From IMG/VR virus record IMGVR_UViG_2731957577_000001, positions 96,001-160,000 of that record: a stretch of DNA of 64,000 bases; one strand, 5' to 3'. Shown here piece by piece: positions 47,847 to 63,763 of the stretch. The stretch's first letter is position 1. The number at the start of each line of letters is the position of its first letter. The DNA comes from a virus. Its lineage: Duplodnaviria > Caudoviricetes. A program made the translations under genes and the position numbers. Under the pieces are notes generated by a model. That model saw only the letters and a list, made by a program, of their open reading frames with translations. It did no database searches and had not been told where the DNA came from.

Positions 47847-48280
47847 ACCTATGACACTTCATGGCGAGCGAGTGATAAATGAACTATGACATAGATTATG
47901 AGATACGACGACCTATGAGACTTGAGGGCGAGCGAGTTATAAATGATCGAGTGAGATTTGATATCTATGATAACTCGACAAATTACATAAGGAGCTATCT
48001 ATGAACTTGCAAGACGGGCGACATGGATTCAATAGACGCACCTATGAATTCTGGAGATAGTCGATATATCTATGAATGAAATATCTATGAGATATGAAAC
48101 GGAGCGGGTTATCAATGATAGATATCGATATGACATATGGAGATTGGCGAGATATACGATAGAAGCTACGATATGAGACGTGAGAGATGTCTGGGAAAAA
48201 CTATCGAAACCTAGCTATGAGATGTGATGGCGGGCGGGATATATGTCGAAGGGGAGGTGGTGACATTTCGCGACGGGCGG
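47847..48280. repeat. Non-coding CTATGA / GGCGAGCGAG repeat region (centromere- or origin-like)
   Basis: Nine exact CTATGA plus variants; near-identical 36-bp direct repeat at 47847 and 47911. Confidence 0.7.
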
Positions 48281-48428: not shown

Positions 48429-49016
48429 ATGGTAGAGTGGCCAGAGCTTGAATATGTCACGTTGGGTGACGCAGCCGAGATTCTCAAGGTGCCTGCGCCA
48501 ACTCTTCGAGGTTGGGCAGACAAACTGGAGGAACTCGGGGTACATATGCTCCAAAGAAATCATCGGAAAGAACGAATATTCACAAAACAAGATCTGGAGA
48601 TCTTCGAGTTTATCAAGCAACAAAAGGATCTGTATGGCCGGAAGACCACAACGGTTGACTTGGCCATGATGGTGAAGAATCGGTTTGAGTGTCGGAGTGT
48701 AGAGTTGCATCCGGAACTCACGGAGTATCAGCCAAGACCGGATTTCACGCCGGCCACCGCGAAGGCCATCTTGGAACACGAGGGATTCCAGCAGCTCATG
48801 AATGCGATGGTCAACGCTGCGGCGGAAAAGGCGGTAGAGACGGTGAGAGAGGAAATGGAGGAGGAGAGACGCAAGTTCTGGGACGAGTATCAACGCCAGA
48901 GGGCAGAGGACACAGACTTTCTGCTGAACAAGATCAAAGAGAACAAGGAGCTGTACCAAGAGATCATTCGACTACAAAAGAGACCACTGTGGAAGCGGCT
49001 CTTCGGAAAAGAATAG
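48429..49016 (+). CDS. MerR-like HTH plus coiled coil plus amphipathic tail (RacA/TubY/pSK1-Par-like)
   Basis: GDAAEILKVPAPTLRGW...R....ERIF; C-terminus KRPLWKRLFGKE. Confidence 0.75.
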   Translation: MVEWPELEYVTLGDAAEILKVPAPTLRGWADKLEELGVHMLQRNHRKERIFTKQDLEIFEFIKQQKDLYGRKTTTVDLAMMVKNRFECRSVELHPELTEYQPRPDFTPATAKAILEHEGFQQLMNAMVNAAAEKAVETVREEMEEERRKFWDEYQRQRAEDTDFLLNKIKENKELYQEIIRLQKRPLWKRLFGKE

Positions 49017-55350: not shown

Positions 55351-55665
55351 GTGTTAAGTTGTATGTCAGCGATACGAAGGAACCATCCTCCGGAATTCAA
55401 GGCCAAGGTTGTACTGGAAATTTTGCGAGAAGAAAAATCGATTTCCGAGCTGGCTTCCGAGCATGGGATTCACCCCAATGTCCTTCAGCGGTGGAAAAAT
55501 GATGTCGTTCAAAATCTGGCGCAACTTTTTGTCGATGATCGCAAGGGCATTACGAAAATGAAAAACGAATACGAACAGAAAATCAACCAACTCTATGCGG
55601 AGGTGGGAAAACTTACGACACAGAACGCATGGCTCAAAAAAAAATCTGGCCTCCCGATTGACTAG
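55351..55665 (+). CDS. IS3 transposase OrfA
   Basis: EFKAKVVLE...SELASEHGIHP HTH; ends at an A9 slippery site (WLKKKSG). Confidence 0.9.
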   Translation: MLSCMSAIRRNHPPEFKAKVVLEILREEKSISELASEHGIHPNVLQRWKNDVVQNLAQLFVDDRKGITKMKNEYEQKINQLYAEVGKLTTQNAWLKKKSGLPID

Positions 55666-56521
55666 ACAAGAGCGTTTGGCATTGCTGGATTGGGATTGTA
55701 CCGAACTGCCGCTCAGTCAACAAGCAGAGCTTCTCAGTCTCAATCGATCCAGTTTGTATTACCAGCCAAGACCGCCGTCGCCGGAAGAAGTGGCCATCAA
55801 ACATGCCATCGATCGGATCTATACCCAATACCCGATGTTCGGTTCAAGGCGCATCACTGCGATTCTCAGACGGGATGAAGGCTTCCGTGTTCACCGCAGC
55901 ACGATTCAGCGTTATATGCAGGAGATGGGAATATCCGCCATCTATCCCGGTCCCAATCTCAGCAAGCGTCATTTGCAACATCGCATTTATCCGTATTTGC
56001 TCCGCGGTCTGGACATCGTCCGACCGAATCAGGTGTGGGGCATTGATCTGACTTACATCCGATTGCAGCGCGGCTGGATGTATCTGGTCGCCGTCCTGGA
56101 TTGGTATTCCCGGTATGTCGTCGCCTGGCAGCTGGATCAGAGCCTGGAGATCGATTTCGTCCTGGAAACGGTGAAAACCGCTTTGGCTGTGAACAAGCCT
56201 GAAATATGGAACAGCGATCAGGGCAGCCATTTTACCAGTCCACAGTACATCGAACTGTTGAAAGCCGAACAAATCCGCATCAGCATGGATGGGAAAGGAC
56301 GGGCTGTGGACAACATTTTCACCGAACGGTTTTGGCGCAGTCTCAAATACGAGGAAGTCTATCTTCACGATTACGCCAATCCGCGAGAAGCTCGAAAAGG
56401 CATTACCCGGTACATCGAACTCTACAATCATTACCGGCCTCATCAATCCTTGAACAATCATACGCCGGCATCGATCTACTGGGGAAACGTGCAACTGCCC
56501 GATCTGGTTATCCACAGGTAA
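55595..56521 (+). CDS. IS3 transposase OrfB (DDE), expressed by -1 frameshift
   Basis: W..DLTYI, NSDQGSHF, DNIFTERFWRSLKYE. Confidence 0.93.
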   Translation: MRRWENLRHRTHGSKKNLASRLTRQERLALLDWDCTELPLSQQAELLSLNRSSLYYQPRPPSPEEVAIKHAIDRIYTQYPMFGSRRITAILRRDEGFRVHRSTIQRYMQEMGISAIYPGPNLSKRHLQHRIYPYLLRGLDIVRPNQVWGIDLTYIRLQRGWMYLVAVLDWYSRYVVAWQLDQSLEIDFVLETVKTALAVNKPEIWNSDQGSHFTSPQYIELLKAEQIRISMDGKGRAVDNIFTERFWRSLKYEEVYLHDYANPREARKGITRYIELYNHYRPHQSLNNHTPASIYWGNVQLPDLVIHR

Positions 56522-57989: not shown

Positions 57990-58023
57990 CCTAAATCAGC
58001 CGATAGGCTTGAAGGGCATTACA
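57990..58023 (-). promoter_or_regulatory. Hairpin element abutting an operator copy
   Basis: Plus strand: CCTAAATC-AGCC-GATA-GGCT, then TGAAGGGCATTACA. Confidence 0.6.
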
Positions 58024-58116
58024 CAACCAGAAACACAGTATACCCTAACTTACCACCACTTTGAACATCCCGTAGGGGACATGAAACACCATACACATGA
58101 CACATGGATGACCATT

Positions 58117-58283
58117 AGATGAACCTTGTATGACTGAAAAGAAACTTGTGAGATATGTCCTTGAAACACCGAAAAGACCCTCGTGTAATATGCTCTTGAA
58201 ACAACCAAAAGACCATTTCGAGATATGCACTTGAAACCTCGAAAAGCCCCTTTTTGTGTGGGCTTGAAACACCAAAAAGACCC
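58117..58283. repeat. About 35-bp direct repeats (4 good plus 1 degenerate)
   Basis: CTTGAAAC-N3-4-AAAAGACC core at 58160, 58195, 58230 and 58263; degenerate copy at 58125. Confidence 0.75.
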
Positions 58284-58519
58284 TGCCAAACCCCGCACGA
58301 GGCACCGCCAAGGACCTGCACACGATAATGCCGGATTACCACAAGTTGATGATGTATCGGCTTGCATCGAGTCATGGACATGGGGCACAGAGAGAGAAGC
58401 AGAGAGGGGAGGATGGGAGTGTGCATGTGGGGTAGGGGAGAGACATGCGTACATCCGCATCCCGGAGGGTTGGGACAGGGGCTGCATCGTTCCAGCCCCC
58501 ATCCCGGTCTGCGTGATGC

Positions 58520-61500
58520 TTACTCGTAGACACAGAAGCCCACAATGGCAAACTTCACAGTATGCTTGCCATTGAACTCGGCTTCCTCGACGTCGGCCAC
58601 AAAGGCCTTGTGTCCGCTGAAGAAGGGATAGGCAGAGGCATAGAGACGGCCAACCTTGAGACCATTGAAATAGACAAAGGCTACAAGGTTGCCGGTGAGT
58701 TTCTCTTCTTCATAGCGGATGCCGATGATGCCACCATTCTTGAGGGCGGCTTCGACTTTCTCACCAGAGATGCCACGCAACACACTCATGGAGACGTTGA
58801 AGTGGCTTGGCGCGACTGCCTCAATGGTGTTCGGTGTCTTGGTACCAGAGACGACCATGCAAGCCGCCAACAGTTGACGCTTGGCCGCCACCCACGGGAA
58901 GGCATGGGCTTCACTCTTGGATTCGGCATAGGTCATGTGATAGGCGACATAGCCAATCTCTTCAGGAGCAAAACCAGCTTCGAGAGCGGCGATGGCTCGT
59001 TGAGCCTTCTCGACGATGGCACCGATCTTGTTCTTGCGTTCTTCCTCGATGCGATTCTTGCCGGTCACATAGAGCGGCGATTTATCGTCTCCATCGACCG
59101 CAGCCAGCAGGTTCTCGAGTTGCTTCTCGGAATACTCGAACGCCTGGGAGATCGCATAGCCATATTCCCGCTTGATCGGCGCGATATGCTTCTTCAACGC
59201 CTCGAAGCGCGCGGGATCCATGACGATGCAGGAGCTGAGTTCACCAAGGATGTTACAGCTCATGTCCTCCTTGTTCATGGACTCGACCACATCGAGGATG
59301 TTGGCCTCGAGATAGTCCTGAACATGCTTGCGGACCTGAGACAACACACTTCCAGTGAAGCGCCCTTCACGACCACGACGAGCGGCCATCCAGTCTGGAT
59401 TGAACCAGACGCGACGACCGAGTTTCTCGTTCCACACCGAGACAAACTCAGGTGGATTGCCGATGAAGGACAGCTCATCCTTCAGATGCTCTTCATACGC
59501 GCCACCATGCTTCGGACGGTCAATCTCCCAACCTTGGCACAGACGCAGGAGTTCGATCCAACGTTCATACCGCTCGATCTCCGCCAGCAGGTCTTCCTTA
59601 TTGCCGACGCCCATCGCCACCATATAGCCAAGGCGGCGGACGGCATCGGCCAAACGAGTCGCATAGTTCGTCAGCTGGCCGATCTTATTCGGCACGAGCT
59701 TGCGAACCACCCAAGCCTTGGACATGTCATGAATGGCCTGAATCAGTTCATGACCATACAACGTATCCTCGAACTTGAGTGTCCAACCATCCTGCTCCAC
59801 GTCATCAAAGGCAATGGCCTGAGCTTCGCCCCAATCCATCGCCCACGGGCAACCTTCGACCCACTCATAGTTGCCATCCTCCAGACGGCGGAAGGATTTA
59901 TCGAGGATGGCGGGATAGGACTTCTTCTTCAGAACCTCGACGATCTCCGCCTGTGTCGTCGCCAGAGTGGTATCACCATCATTATCGGCGCCACCCTGCT
60001 GAACAGTGGCAAAGTCATGGACACTCATGACACACAGGTTCTCAAAGCCACCCTTGGCCGCGGCACGCACATAGTTCTGCGGCGCCACGCATTTAACCAG
60101 AGCGGCTTCACCCTTGGCAATCGCGGGATTACGCATAAGCGCCACTTCCCGAGTCTCAATGCTGCGGCTGTCGTCGGACACCATGAAGACGGTGTTCGGA
60201 CGCAGACCGATGTGTTCCGGCACGATGACTTCGCCTTCTGGGCAGAGCCGGTGCGCTTCCAGAATCGCATACGGATCTTGCACCATCCAGCGATAGTGAC
60301 CTTCGACCGGAATCATGCCCTTGGTCCACATGTCCGCGATGTTCATCAGGATGTCCCGAGCGTACTTCTTCATCTGCAAGTCTTTCAGGGTGAAAGGCGC
60401 TGCAAACAAGAAGTGGGTGAAGGTCGATACCAGTGTCTTGTTCAGCACCTCTTCGGCTTCTTCGTCCTCCAGGCTCAGGATCTCCTCTTGAGACGGAAGT
60501 CCGACATACTCAGAGATCAACTCGGGATCATGCAGCATGTCGACCAGACGATCCAGATGCCGTGTGACAATCTTCTTCGCCGTCTCCGCGCCCATGCTCA
60601 TGATGTGCATGAACTGATACGGAAGCAGCGTGAACTTCTTGCAGTTACGCGCCTGCTTGTTGAACAAGGCAATGCGCAGGGTGATGGTATGCTTCATCAG
60701 GTCGATATTGCGATAATCGCCCTTGACAGCGCCCTCCATCGCCACAATGTCTTCCTCGAAATACTTCTCAAGGCCTGGGACATAGACCATCAGACCCTTG
60801 GTGAAGGGAGTAATGCGAATCTGGAACGCCGAGCTGCGGACATCAAATTCCTTGCAGAGCGTCTTCCAGACCCGAGCATTGCAGAACACCAGGCCATCAC
60901 CCACCGCAAACTTCTGCGGGAACTTCGCGGCATCAAAGACCTCGAACTGCTTGGTCTCCATGTTGAAGGCCTTGAACTTTCCGGTCTTCACAATGGCATG
61001 GGCCTGACGCGCCACACGCATGGTAAACTTGCCGCCGACGATGGAATACTCACCATTGGCATGCTCCACAATCTCCGTGCCAAACGTAATCGCCCGGCTC
61101 GGGATGGTGTTGGTGGACGCCAAGCCAAAGCGCTTCATGCCCTTGGTGATGTCCAGCACCCATTTGCCGTCCTTCTTCTTGGCAAAGGCGCGGAAGTCCA
61201 TGCCGATTGCCTCAAAGACTTTCGGCACCGACAGATCGACCAGGAACACACCTTGCAGCGTGCGGTCCTGAGATGGAGAGGCCATGAAATACTCAGCCTT
61301 GTGAACCCTGTTGCCACCCTTGATGAAGAAGCCGTTGTGAACGACATGTTCACGCATCGCTTCGCTCTCCGGCTCCATGTTCTTGAGGTTCAGGTTCACA
61401 TAGCATAGAACCGGAAGCACACGCACACCATTGACCTCGACGACCTTGTGAAGCAGAGCGTCCGTCAAAGCGCTCTGATTCTGACGCTGATACCCTGAGC

Positions 61501-61687
61501 GTGGATCCTCATCGACCAAGACGCGGGGATCCGCATAGTTGAGCGTGGAGACATAGCCATTGAGTTCTGCATCCCAAACCATTGCATTGACGTCGGCGCG
61601 AAGGACGGTGATGCCATAACGCTTCTTGCTGCTCTTCATGATGATCTCCTCCTGGATGTGGTTGTTGATGAGGGTGGTGTGGTTCAT
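58520..61687 (-). CDS. YonO/QDE-1-like single-subunit double-psi-barrel RNA polymerase
   Basis: GDG, AFQIR...KG, RNP and catalytic GGADNDGD (DxDGD) motifs; about 1050 aa; start could be 61687 or 61639. Confidence 0.88.
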   Translation of the reverse strand: MNHTTLINNHIQEEIIMKSSKKRYGITVLRADVNAMVWDAELNGYVSTLNYADPRVLVDEDPRSGYQRQNQSALTDALLHKVVEVNGVRVLPVLCYVNLNLKNMEPESEAMREHVVHNGFFIKGGNRVHKAEYFMASPSQDRTLQGVFLVDLSVPKVFEAIGMDFRAFAKKKDGKWVLDITKGMKRFGLASTNTIPSRAITFGTEIVEHANGEYSIVGGKFTMRVARQAHAIVKTGKFKAFNMETKQFEVFDAAKFPQKFAVGDGLVFCNARVWKTLCKEFDVRSSAFQIRITPFTKGLMVYVPGLEKYFEEDIVAMEGAVKGDYRNIDLMKHTITLRIALFNKQARNCKKFTLLPYQFMHIMSMGAETAKKIVTRHLDRLVDMLHDPELISEYVGLPSQEEILSLEDEEAEEVLNKTLVSTFTHFLFAAPFTLKDLQMKKYARDILMNIADMWTKGMIPVEGHYRWMVQDPYAILEAHRLCPEGEVIVPEHIGLRPNTVFMVSDDSRSIETREVALMRNPAIAKGEAALVKCVAPQNYVRAAAKGGFENLCVMSVHDFATVQQGGADNDGDTTLATTQAEIVEVLKKKSYPAILDKSFRRLEDGNYEWVEGCPWAMDWGEAQAIAFDDVEQDGWTLKFEDTLYGHELIQAIHDMSKAWVVRKLVPNKIGQLTNYATRLADAVRRLGYMVAMGVGNKEDLLAEIERYERWIELLRLCQGWEIDRPKHGGAYEEHLKDELSFIGNPPEFVSVWNEKLGRRVWFNPDWMAARRGREGRFTGSVLSQVRKHVQDYLEANILDVVESMNKEDMSCNILGELSSCIVMDPARFEALKKHIAPIKREYGYAISQAFEYSEKQLENLLAAVDGDDKSPLYVTGKNRIEEERKNKIGAIVEKAQRAIAALEAGFAPEEIGYVAYHMTYAESKSEAHAFPWVAAKRQLLAACMVVSGTKTPNTIEAVAPSHFNVSMSVLRGISGEKVEAALKNGGIIGIRYEEEKLTGNLVAFVYFNGLKVGRLYASAYPFFSGHKAFVADVEEAEFNGKHTVKFAIVGFCVYE

Positions 61688-61755
61688 GAACATTTCCTCC
61701 TTGGAATTCATAAGATTCTGATATTGATAGGCATTGAAAGGCACTTCATGATTCA

Positions 61756-62181
61756 TCACAGATCCAGCTCCTTGTTCTCGTATTTGTCGACCCATTCCCA
61801 GTAGAGGTCGAATGCAGACTCCACACTGGCTTTGTCGATGAGTTTGACCAAGGTGTGTTGGAGGCCATATCGCCCTTTGAAGGAGAATGAAATGCCAAAC
61901 ACAATGACGGGCTGCGGAAACACCTCATGGCGATTGCGCCACCTTGCCCCAACCGCGATACTATAGACGCCAAGCACATCGACTTGGCCCAAGAAGAACG
62001 TATGGTCCTTCTTGTCAAAGGCGGTGGTGAAGTCGACGGGAACCCCATAGAGATACCCATCGGCTCCATAGAGTCGGTCCTCCACTTGCGTGGAGACGCG
62101 GAAGTCGCGTCCGAAGACCTGCTCAAAGTGCAAAATGAGCATGTCCTCGATCCGTTGACCATAGCTTTGACGAATCCACAT
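61756..62181 (-). CDS. Hypothetical protein (possible PD-(D/E)xK-like)
   Basis: EDRLYGADGY...PVDFT; AGGAGG RBS. Confidence 0.65.
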   Translation of the reverse strand: MWIRQSYGQRIEDMLILHFEQVFGRDFRVSTQVEDRLYGADGYLYGVPVDFTTAFDKKDHTFFLGQVDVLGVYSIAVGARWRNRHEVFPQPVIVFGISFSFKGRYGLQHTLVKLIDKASVESAFDLYWEWVDKYENKELDL

Positions 62182-62515
62182 AGGGAACTCCTCCTTCGAG
62201 CGTTTTTGAGAAAAAAGAAAAAGCCTCATGTAGGGACAATGACGAACTCATCCCTACAAAAGGCGGGGAATCAAGAATTCTCTCCATGCTTGGATAGGGT
62301 TTCTATCGTGCGACAAGCATGGCGTCTTTGTCCTTGTACCCTGTGTGCTATGGACAAAGACACAGCATCACACACAGGGAGCGTGTGGTGTTTCACGGAT
62401 CGAATGCAGCCACGCTTCCTGCATTCGACCGGACCACGGCATCCTCTGAATCACCTGTCGTCATCACAGGACTGCAGATCCAGAGAACCCATGATCATCT
62501 GCTCGTCTGAGCCAA

Positions 62516-63040
62516 TCAGACGAACAGCGTCAGCACAATGAACTCCACAGCTTGCCAAGCGATGAAGAAGGGCCAGAACAATCCCATCGTCGCCAGGATC
62601 ACGAGACCCGCAAACCACAAGCTGCCATACGAAAGACCATCTAAGAGATTGCCAAATGTCAATTGGCGACCTAATAGATAACGCTTAATCAACCAAATCA
62701 ATGCGGTGACAAAGAACACCACAGCAAATCCCGTCAACAAGGCACCCGTGATGGTGGAGCAACCCCAACTCGCCAGAACCGCAGCACTCGCCACGGTCAC
62801 ATGGCTGGTGTGCTTGCGAATCATCGCCTCCAACTTCCGAGCTCCAGCCTGGATCTTCTCCCACACCTTGCCGCCAATCGTCTTAAAGAAGCATTTTGCT
62901 TTGTCCACAAAGCCCATCTTCTCTTCCTCCTTCTTCTCTTCGTTCACAATCTCTGCATCAATCACCAACGACGTCTTTGTGTCCTTCGCCTCAGCACCCA
63001 CACGACCAAACCCACCAAACAACAGCTCATGCAACGTCAT
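62516..63040 (-). CDS. Multi-pass membrane protein
   Basis: Hydrophobic C-terminal half; AAGGAGG RBS. Confidence 0.7.
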   Translation of the reverse strand: MTLHELLFGGFGRVGAEAKDTKTSLVIDAEIVNEEKKEEEKMGFVDKAKCFFKTIGGKVWEKIQAGARKLEAMIRKHTSHVTVASAAVLASWGCSTITGALLTGFAVVFFVTALIWLIKRYLLGRQLTFGNLLDGLSYGSLWFAGLVILATMGLFWPFFIAWQAVEFIVLTLFV

Positions 63041-63358: not shown

Positions 63359-63763
63359 GAAGTTCACCCTCCTGCAGATGTTTTTGGGCATGAAAAGGGG
63401 GTGGGGCATCGAACGCCGCCACCCACATGCCAACAATTCAACCTATCACCCCGCGCAATTTTTTATATTTTGTGGCCCCTATATGGCGTTTCCTTTTCCT
63501 GTAAACTATGGAGGGAGAGAAAAAGGGAGAGGGGAAGAGAGGAAATCGGTGCAGTGTACAATAAAGGTGTTCTATGAATTACCCCACCGGGGACAAGCCC
63601 ATATGACTGGCTATGACCCCTGGCCGTGGCCACGCGCAGTCAGGTATCGTTTTATGTTCTGAGGCGTCTTGGCCAAAAATTTTTTTATACTACCTGTAGG
63701 TCTCTATAGCGAAATTTCGTATAATGGGAATGATGAAAGGCATTACAGAGGGGAGAGGGGATC

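Follow-up and report, generated by a model that had tools for sequence, protein, structure and literature searches.

A gp99/YonO-type RNA polymerase gene of a probable phage-plasmid and the genes it may transcribe

Which genes does a phage-borne relative of the eukaryotic RNA interference (RNAi) polymerases transcribe, and how would it recognise them? The question is raised by a large open reading frame (ORF) on the minus strand of a 64,000-nucleotide (nt) stretch of a caudoviricete record (IMG/VR IMGVR_UViG_2731957577_000001, positions 96,001 to 160,000), referred to here as the window, in whose positions coordinates are given. The window is part of contig C7. In a preliminary description, made from the letters of the window, the gene, placed at the head of the replication region, was taken to encode a YonO/QDE-1-like single-subunit RNA polymerase that drives the replication (middle) genes. 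The explanation considered probable as a whole is that C7 is a phage-plasmid whose gene encodes an intact, non-virion polymerase of the gp99 clade, which would take over a later class of the element's genes.

An intact single-chain two-barrel RNA polymerase

The product was found to be an intact single-chain two-barrel RNA polymerase; its family, fold and complete active site are shown, as are its genomic context and synteny. The gene and the features on which the assignment draws are the following (aa, amino acids).

58520..61756, minus strand: RNA polymerase gene of gp99/YonO type (ORF with translation, Pfam, AlphaFold2 and Foldseek)
61756, minus strand: candidate start M14, giving 1078 aa; ATG shared in part with the TGA stop of the gene before it (TGATG)
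61687, minus strand: candidate start M37, giving 1055 aa; the end coordinate used in the preliminary description
61639, minus strand: candidate start M53, giving 1039 aa
60896-60898, minus strand: fourth catalytic aspartate, D300, invariant in 42 members
60794..60826, minus strand: FQIRITPFTKG (aa 324-334), which supplies the first barrel with the basic residues R327 and K333
60125..60133, minus strand: RNP (aa 555-557), with R555 and P557, the invariant R-x-P of two-barrel polymerases
59972..59995, minus strand: GGADNDGD (aa 601-608), the DxDGD loop that binds Mg in the second double-psi beta-barrel (D604, D606, D608)
58529..58801, minus strand: C-terminal beta-rich domain of about 90 aa, kept in the close clade (domain model with a predicted local distance difference test score, pLDDT, of 91)

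The minus strand from 58520 to 61795 is a single long open frame (1091 codons counted from the first ATG) with three in-frame ATGs that have Shine-Dalgarno sequences, and the polymerase is about 1040-1078 aa long according to the start chosen. In the 1078-aa form, residues 1-42 were of low confidence in the AlphaFold2 model and the alignments of homologues begin at about residue 57. The motif numbering given above is that of the 1091-codon frame, the designations R314, K320 and D287 belonging to the 1078-aa numbering. The ORF of roughly 1050 aa claimed in the preliminary description was borne out (1055 aa from M37), and GGADNDGD, RNP and FQIR..KG were present where it had placed them, with residues invariant in 42 diverse members of the family. 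The codons TTA, CTA and TCA are depleted in the gene (2 of 1092), as they are in the sheath gene (0 of 932), the AAA gene (0), the RecA gene and the polymerase genes of relatives. A 948-aa ORF on the opposite strand (58562-61408, plus strand) was rejected as a gene, being a codon-bias shadow with no Pfam match.

Against the Pfam model of RNA-dependent RNA polymerases (RdRPs; PF05183), the polymerase scored 47.8 bits (cut-off 23.8), with residues 298-806 falling on model positions 162-559 of 582, and it also matched phrog_8308. YonO of phage SPbeta gave no PF05183 match at all, and a phmmer search of the single polymerase sequence against the Protein Data Bank (PDB) sequences returned nothing. 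Comparison of profiles by hhalign related the polymerase to YonO with 94.7% probability (expect value, E, 5.7e-8) over 206 columns including DNDGD, to which GGADNDGD was paired, and the clade profile found yonO in the SPbeta record (E 1.5e-6). With RDR2 of Arabidopsis, the same clade profile paired RNP with KNP and GGADNDGD with SGGDLDGD, and the C-terminal Y..TY...FPW motif was also aligned. Run against NC_009760, the clade profile matched gp99 at positions 77-690 (E 4.7e-21) and 757-1056 (E 6.3e-12) of 1157, within one frame of 1246 codons. This protein (gp99 or ORF099, 208026-211682) belongs to the Bacillus thuringiensis jumbo myovirus 0305phi8-36 and is annotated as 'hypothetical DNA-directed RNA polymerase; similar to Pfam05183'; in the same record, the structural proteins have a virion mass-spectrometry note and gp99 has none. 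It was described by Hardies, Thomas and Serwer in 2007, with an end-to-end alignment with the RdRP family and with DNA-dependence assumed (PMC2147016), and was listed as YonO-like by Iyer et al. in 2021 (PMC7824862). On these sequence comparisons, the polymerase is assigned to the gp99 clade, a distant sister of SPbeta YonO. It is a further member of an already known clade, gp99 having been annotated as a putative RNA polymerase in 2007.

The AlphaFold2 model (input alignment of 30 homologues) reached a pLDDT of 86.6 and a predicted template modelling score (pTM) of 0.81. When the model was compared with solved structures by Foldseek, the best match was QDE-1 (E 7e-21, probability 1.00), followed by plant RDR2 (E about 1e-16, probability 1.00) and the crAss-like virion RNA polymerase 6vr4 (E 6.4e-4), with multisubunit polymerases below significance. 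The comparison with YonO and QDE-1 proposed in the preliminary description thus agreed with its identification of a YonO/QDE-1-like single-subunit RNA polymerase, as did the Pfam match and the active-site residues. GGADNDGD was found to be invariant in 30 close and 42 diverse homologues. Thirteen residues are invariant across the 42 diverse members, in an alignment that includes SPbeta YonO and 0305phi8-36 gp99, and eight of them are D300, R327, K333, R555, P557, D604, D606 and D608. Ruprich-Robert and Thuriaux (PMC2919709) reported eight residues to be invariant in all two-barrel polymerases, namely the three aspartates of DxDxD, a fourth aspartate, an arginine and a lysine of the first barrel, and R-x-P; since all eight are present, the active site is complete. 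The C-terminal domain gave no Foldseek match below E 0.03. By structure comparison its best match was VIA (Z 6.5), and HIRAN domains scored Z 5.2-5.4, below the level that indicates more than a common arrangement; no fold was assigned to it.

By analogy with YonO, the polymerase would be DNA-dependent. An enzyme that is a true RdRP, copying phage or host transcripts into, for example, antisense or double-stranded RNA, would be in keeping with the direct match of the clade to the eukaryotic RdRP model, which YonO does not show, with the C-terminal Y..TY...FPW head motif that it has in common with RDR2 and with QDE-1 and RDR2 as best structural matches. Such an activity has no known role in a double-stranded DNA phage, a point already made for gp99 (PMC2147016); moreover, YonO is DNA-dependent and QDE-1 itself also uses DNA templates, and this alternative is considered very improbable.

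The element and the surroundings of the gene

Contig C7 (198 kb) has a GC content of 52% throughout, compared with about 60% for the other large contigs of the 3.6-Mb genome. It encodes a large terminase, a portal protein, a protease or scaffold, a major capsid protein, a tail sheath and a ParM-like partition protein, together with Pol III alpha, a ribonucleotide reductase (RNR) and a DnaQ-like exonuclease, and the genes of the window include those for a DnaN clamp, DnaG primase, UvrD, two SNF2 helicases, ThyX, RecA, an AAA ATPase, a single-stranded DNA-binding protein (SSB) and RNase H. No matches to sigma-70 r2 or r4 domains were found on C7. Homologues of the polymerase are encoded on Paenibacillus and Bacillus contigs or plasmids, 190-260 kb in size, that carry terminase and ParM/ALP genes, and the sheath of C7 is related to those of 0305phi8-36 and of Moorella phage MTATph1. 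Given its structural genes, its ParM-like gene, its plasmid relatives and the kinship of its sheath, C7 is a 0305phi8-36-like jumbo myovirus, most likely kept as a plasmid, and for this lineage the presence of the polymerase gene is expected. The polymerase was not found in 60 related genomes searched, tblastn searches of a phage collection with the polymerase and with a distant 840-aa relative gave nothing at E 1e-5, and no polymerase match was obtained in MTATph1 with the clade profile.

The gene map of C7 consists of two long divergent arms that meet at 63359-63763. The leftward arm begins with two small genes, a 336-nt structured leader, a 141-aa gene and the polymerase. Beyond the polymerase, a gap of 480 nt holds a tandem repeat with a 35-bp unit; it is followed by a promoter of the type read by the host sigma factor sigma-A with an operator, then by a small-gene array and finally by genes for replication and recombination. 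Those co-oriented downstream of the polymerase encode SSB, RNase H, the SNF2 helicases, RecA, ThyX, UvrD, DnaG primase and the DnaN clamp. The first products of the rightward arm are the DnaQ-like exonuclease and a phosphatase; the ParM-like gene, the terminase and the structural genes lie further along it. The position at the head of the replication region, as the preliminary description had it, is correct and is kept in relatives, with the replication genes downstream on the same strand. The order of divergence point, few small genes, polymerase, small genes and replication genes, with ParM and terminase on the opposite arm, is conserved in a Paenibacillus rhizovicinus plasmid, two metagenomic contigs and 0305phi8-36. 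The immediate neighbours of the polymerase gene are as follows.

61756..62181, minus strand: 141-aa gene next to the polymerase on its upstream side, with a stop that overlaps the M14 start
62185..62520, minus strand: structured non-coding leader just ahead of the polymerase operon, with a terminator-like hairpin and U-tract at its end
58153..58284, no strand assigned: tandem array of 3.8 copies of a 35-bp unit, in the gap that follows the polymerase stop

The product of the 141-aa gene had no Pfam or PHROG match; a weak lead to PDDEXK_14 (0.93) and restriction-endonuclease-like models (template modelling score, TM, 0.42-0.49) suggest a possible PD-(D/E)XK nuclease fold. A 36% identical homologue lies directly upstream of the polymerase in relative L020 and none was found there in L018 or L002; with a homologue in only one of three relatives, a role as a conserved small partner of the polymerase was rejected. 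The leader has a minimum free energy of -137.6 kcal/mol (z -6.4), none of 100 shuffled sequences being equally stable. An Rfam search of the window, leader included, found no family, and the leader was rejected as a conserved RNA, the corresponding gaps of relatives being without the structure. Each unit of the 35-bp repeat ends in GGTGTTTCAAG on the gene strand and has an iteron-like look; the array has no counterpart beside the polymerase in L002, L018 or L020 and was rejected as part of a conserved module.

These surroundings bear on the alternative that the enzyme is a replication helper, which would supply RNA for priming or for R-loops at an origin close to its gene, or else initiate at single-stranded DNA ends as QDE-1 does. 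The iteron-like array lies directly downstream, the RNase H and SSB genes follow 6-7 kb downstream, QDE-1 accepts single-stranded DNA templates (according to PDB entry titles) and the C-terminal domain is weakly HIRAN-like (Z 5.4). The array is, however, not kept beside the polymerase in relatives, the element has its own DnaG primase, the HIRAN resemblance lies below the level of more than a common arrangement, and YonO is a true transcriptase. A helper role is regarded as improbable.

Further along the leftward arm, the small-gene array downstream of the polymerase is interrupted by an IS3-family transposase gene (rve, HTH_21) on the opposite strand (55558-56521, plus strand). At 47847-48250, diverged repeats of about 36 nt (ACCTATGA...GCGAGCGAGT...ATAAATGA) lie beside a plus-strand gene (48429-49016) in this minus-strand arm and may represent a centromere or origin.

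The operator and the genes that the polymerase may transcribe

The dominant intergenic motif on C7 was found to be a 14-bp palindrome, TGTAATGCATTACA, with nine matches in the window at no more than two mismatches (0.09 expected) and about 28 intergenic copies on C7, none being found elsewhere in the genome. The copies follow TATAAT or TATACT boxes at a distance of 5-8 nt, with the same orientation as the gene downstream, and one copy lies over a -35 position; this placement after TATAAT-type boxes is the geometry of a repressor operator on host-type (sigma-A) promoters. They occur in both arms, before replication operons, the RNR gene, the ParM-like gene, the portal gene and tail-module genes, and the motif is repeated in relatives L002 and L018. 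The sites relevant here are listed below.

2549, 25367, 30330, 39387, 40042, 43280, 58010 and 63734, with about 20 more on C7: sites of the palindrome
63734..63747, no strand assigned: nearest upstream copy, in the divergent control region about 1.95 kb from the polymerase, 8 nt after the TATAAT of the rightward promoter
58010..58065, minus strand: sigma-A-type promoter (TTCAAA, 17 nt, TATACT) with an operator copy, heading the small-gene array downstream of the polymerase

The operator copy upstream of the gene that the preliminary description had reported thus exists, but it lies about 1.95 kb away, there being none in the leader (62182-62515), and the other near copy, with three mismatches, is downstream (58010-58023). 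An exact copy of the palindrome was also found in SPbeta upstream of yopM (L003:37857), where the record labels it 'palindrome'. Its identification with the SPbeta repeated element bound by MrpR was rejected, that element, as derived from MrpR-bound promoters, being AAAAAATATGTATATA-like, and no homologue of YopR, YopS, YopO, YonR or MrpR was found on C7.

Searches for a promoter specific to the polymerase gave no candidate on C7. Counts of k-mers returned only the operator, a survey of 59 intergenic hairpins revealed no conserved loop family, motif discovery by expectation maximisation with the operator masked yielded only terminator tails, and a simple scan for promoters and terminators near the polymerase gene gave counts at chance level.

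The proposed course of events is as follows. The polymerase gene, among the first of the leftward arm and preceded by the operator-bearing divergent control region and the terminator-ended structured leader, would be transcribed by the host sigma-A polymerase after derepression or infection; its product would then act as a processive DNA-dependent RNA polymerase and take over a later class of the element's genes. Because the element encodes no sigma factor, the gp99-type polymerase is its likely means of switching transcription class. As to the targets, late or middle-plus-late long operons are tentatively preferred, and the replication arm only is considered unlikely.

A role as middle-gene polymerase, in which the enzyme would transcribe the co-oriented small-gene array and then the replication and recombination genes, with the late genes served otherwise, is not new, being an already published hypothesis for the orthologue gp99. 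In PMC2147016, a 21-bp phage-specific promoter-like motif of 0305phi8-36 was described as 'appropriately distributed to be a middle expression promoter', and in the absence of sigma factors in that phage it was argued to be the target of the polymerase. When positions 170001-218948 of 0305phi8-36 were searched, 16 co-oriented hairpins were found with the invariant core CGTTCGCACG and variable, covarying stems, followed by TTTTGTA; they lie in the same arm as that motif, and probably the two are the same. One copy lies about 100 nt upstream of gp99, one in the terminal repeat and others before the earliest small genes, and the hairpin looks as much like a terminator as a promoter. In addition to this motif, the position of the gene at the head of that arm, here and in all relatives examined, favours a middle-gene role, as does yonO of SPbeta, which lies just upstream of, and co-oriented with, the operon that its product transcribes. 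On the other hand, no motif comparable to that of 0305phi8-36 was found on C7, and the latter, being terminator-like, also precedes gp99 itself and the earliest small genes. Furthermore, the operons of the replication arm carry TATAAT-type boxes with the operator (about 9-10 sites in the 64-kb window), pointing to the host polymerase, so that a phage enzyme is less needed there, and the only experimental precedent, YonO, has late genes as its known targets. The preliminary view that the enzyme drives the replication genes finds its support in the position of the gene; the hairpins of C7 form no conserved family. Taken as a whole, the middle-gene role is doubtful.

A late-gene polymerase similar to YonO would instead transcribe the structural and lysis block on the opposite arm (about 85 kb, with genes of up to 8.5 kb). 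YonO, the only tested relative, transcribes late genes and is pause-resistant and processive; the structural block has four operator/sigma-A sites in about 85 kb compared with about ten in the 64-kb window, and the element has no sigma factor with which to switch on its late genes. Against this stand the divergence of the structural arm from the polymerase gene, unlike the arrangement in SPbeta, the operator-bearing sigma-A-type promoters before the portal gene and some tail-module genes, and the failure of motif discovery to find a late promoter motif. Restriction to the late genes is accordingly rated as rather unlikely.

Several observations weigh against the preferred explanation, in which an intact gp99-clade enzyme takes over a later gene class. 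Its identity to YonO is only about 17%, and a pairwise BLASTP comparison of the two was not significant. Motif discovery by expectation maximisation in 96 upstream regions produced only the operator and terminator tails (GGGCC-TTTTT), and with operator-bearing sigma-A-type promoters in both arms the host polymerase could in principle suffice for most of the element. For the polymerase operon itself, the search for a sigma-A promoter gave nothing convincing, so that its early expression by the host polymerase is inferred, as is any assignment of targets. As regards the template, DNA or RNA, the clade is nearer to eukaryotic RdRPs than YonO is.

A second polymerase may be encoded by a tail-module gene. 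A 2260-aa tail-module protein (C7:6754-13536, plus strand, outside the window) contains NxRYPTFH (...NRYPTFH...) and ...KADADGDE..., 38 residues apart, and both NRYPTFH and ADADGD are invariant in 11 homologues from related elements. Its match to the Pfam family RNA_pol_Rpb1_2 was borderline (20.2 bits, and 24.5-25.3 bits in another search, for a cut-off of 25.3); hhalign aligned the motifs exactly with NRAPTLH and NADFDGD of the host beta-prime subunit, with a probability of only 0.8%, and a profile of the protein found nothing among the PDB sequences. From these motifs, the protein may be a virion-delivered RNA polymerase with a beta-prime-like core. If so, it would be the virion enzyme for immediate-early genes, the gp99-type enzyme being the non-virion, later one. 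The gene next to it encodes a 2091-aa protein with a glucosaminidase domain.

A programme of three polymerases can also be drawn up, in which the host sigma-A enzyme would act at the approximately 28 operator-gated promoters, the 2260-aa protein would be delivered with the DNA, and the gp99-type enzyme, without a duplex promoter, would initiate, as QDE-1 does, on DNA that is single-stranded or 3'-ended, through its C-terminal HIRAN-like barrel, coupling transcription to the replication intermediates of its own arm. Such a programme is held to be a long shot.

Significance and comparison with known systems

Among prokaryotic groups, the gp99 clade is the one whose alignment with the eukaryotic RNAi polymerases is most complete, and so it bears on the origin of those enzymes. 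The biochemistry so far comes from the distant YonO. C7 adds an intact example of the clade whose setting is clear: a phage-plasmid that has an operator regulon, lacks a sigma factor and may encode a second polymerase. It is a reasonable choice for asking what such enzymes transcribe and how their start sites are found.

The closest known system is gp99 of 0305phi8-36, which has the same family and overall architecture, with near full-length homology, and is encoded by the same kind of genome, of about 200 kb and myovirus type, with sheath, large terminase and other structural genes of the same lineage. Its gene is placed alike, leading a long non-structural arm in which small genes come next and replication genes after them, and both 0305phi8-36 and C7 are without a recognised sigma factor. 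Nevertheless, gp99 is only about 21% identical to the C7 polymerase and is missed by tblastn at E 1e-5. Moreover, 0305phi8-36 is known in virion form, with terminal repeats of 6.5 kb, whereas C7 and the relatives nearest to it appear to be plasmids and carry a ParM-like gene; the CGTTCGCACG hairpin motif has no counterpart on C7, and the 14-bp operator of C7 was not found in the examined stretch of 0305phi8-36.

YonO of SPbeta is a processive, pause-resistant DNA-dependent RNA polymerase that transcribes late genes (PMC5467207), and yonP, the promoter of the yonO operon, is bound by the master repressor of the phage. Like the C7 polymerase, it is a single-chain two-barrel enzyme with the same catalytic residues, is encoded by a large temperate phage of Bacillota, and its gene heads a long co-oriented gene block adjoining the lysogeny control region. 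It differs in its length of 839 aa, lacking the N- and C-terminal regions that the C7 polymerase has in common with eukaryotic RdRPs, and in that yonO heads the late structural operon, the C7 polymerase gene the replication arm.

The best structural matches, QDE-1 (2J7N, 7Y7T) and RDR2 (7ROZ, 7EU0), align over about 1050 columns with TM values of 0.41-0.52 and have DxDGD, (R/K)NP and the C-terminal Y..TY...FPW in common with the C7 polymerase, at 11-14% identity. Unlike them, the C7 polymerase is the product of a bacterial phage-plasmid gene and has an extra C-terminal beta domain, and it is presumed to serve DNA-dependent transcription, QDE-1 and RDR2 serving RNA silencing. Finally, gp66 of the crAss-like phage phi14:2 (6VR4), the weak fold match noted above, is also a two-barrel phage RNA polymerase related to RdRPs. 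It is a 2166-aa injected virion protein, whereas the C7 polymerase is about half that size and is encoded in the early or non-structural arm; the nearer analogue of gp66 on C7 may be the 2260-aa tail-module protein.

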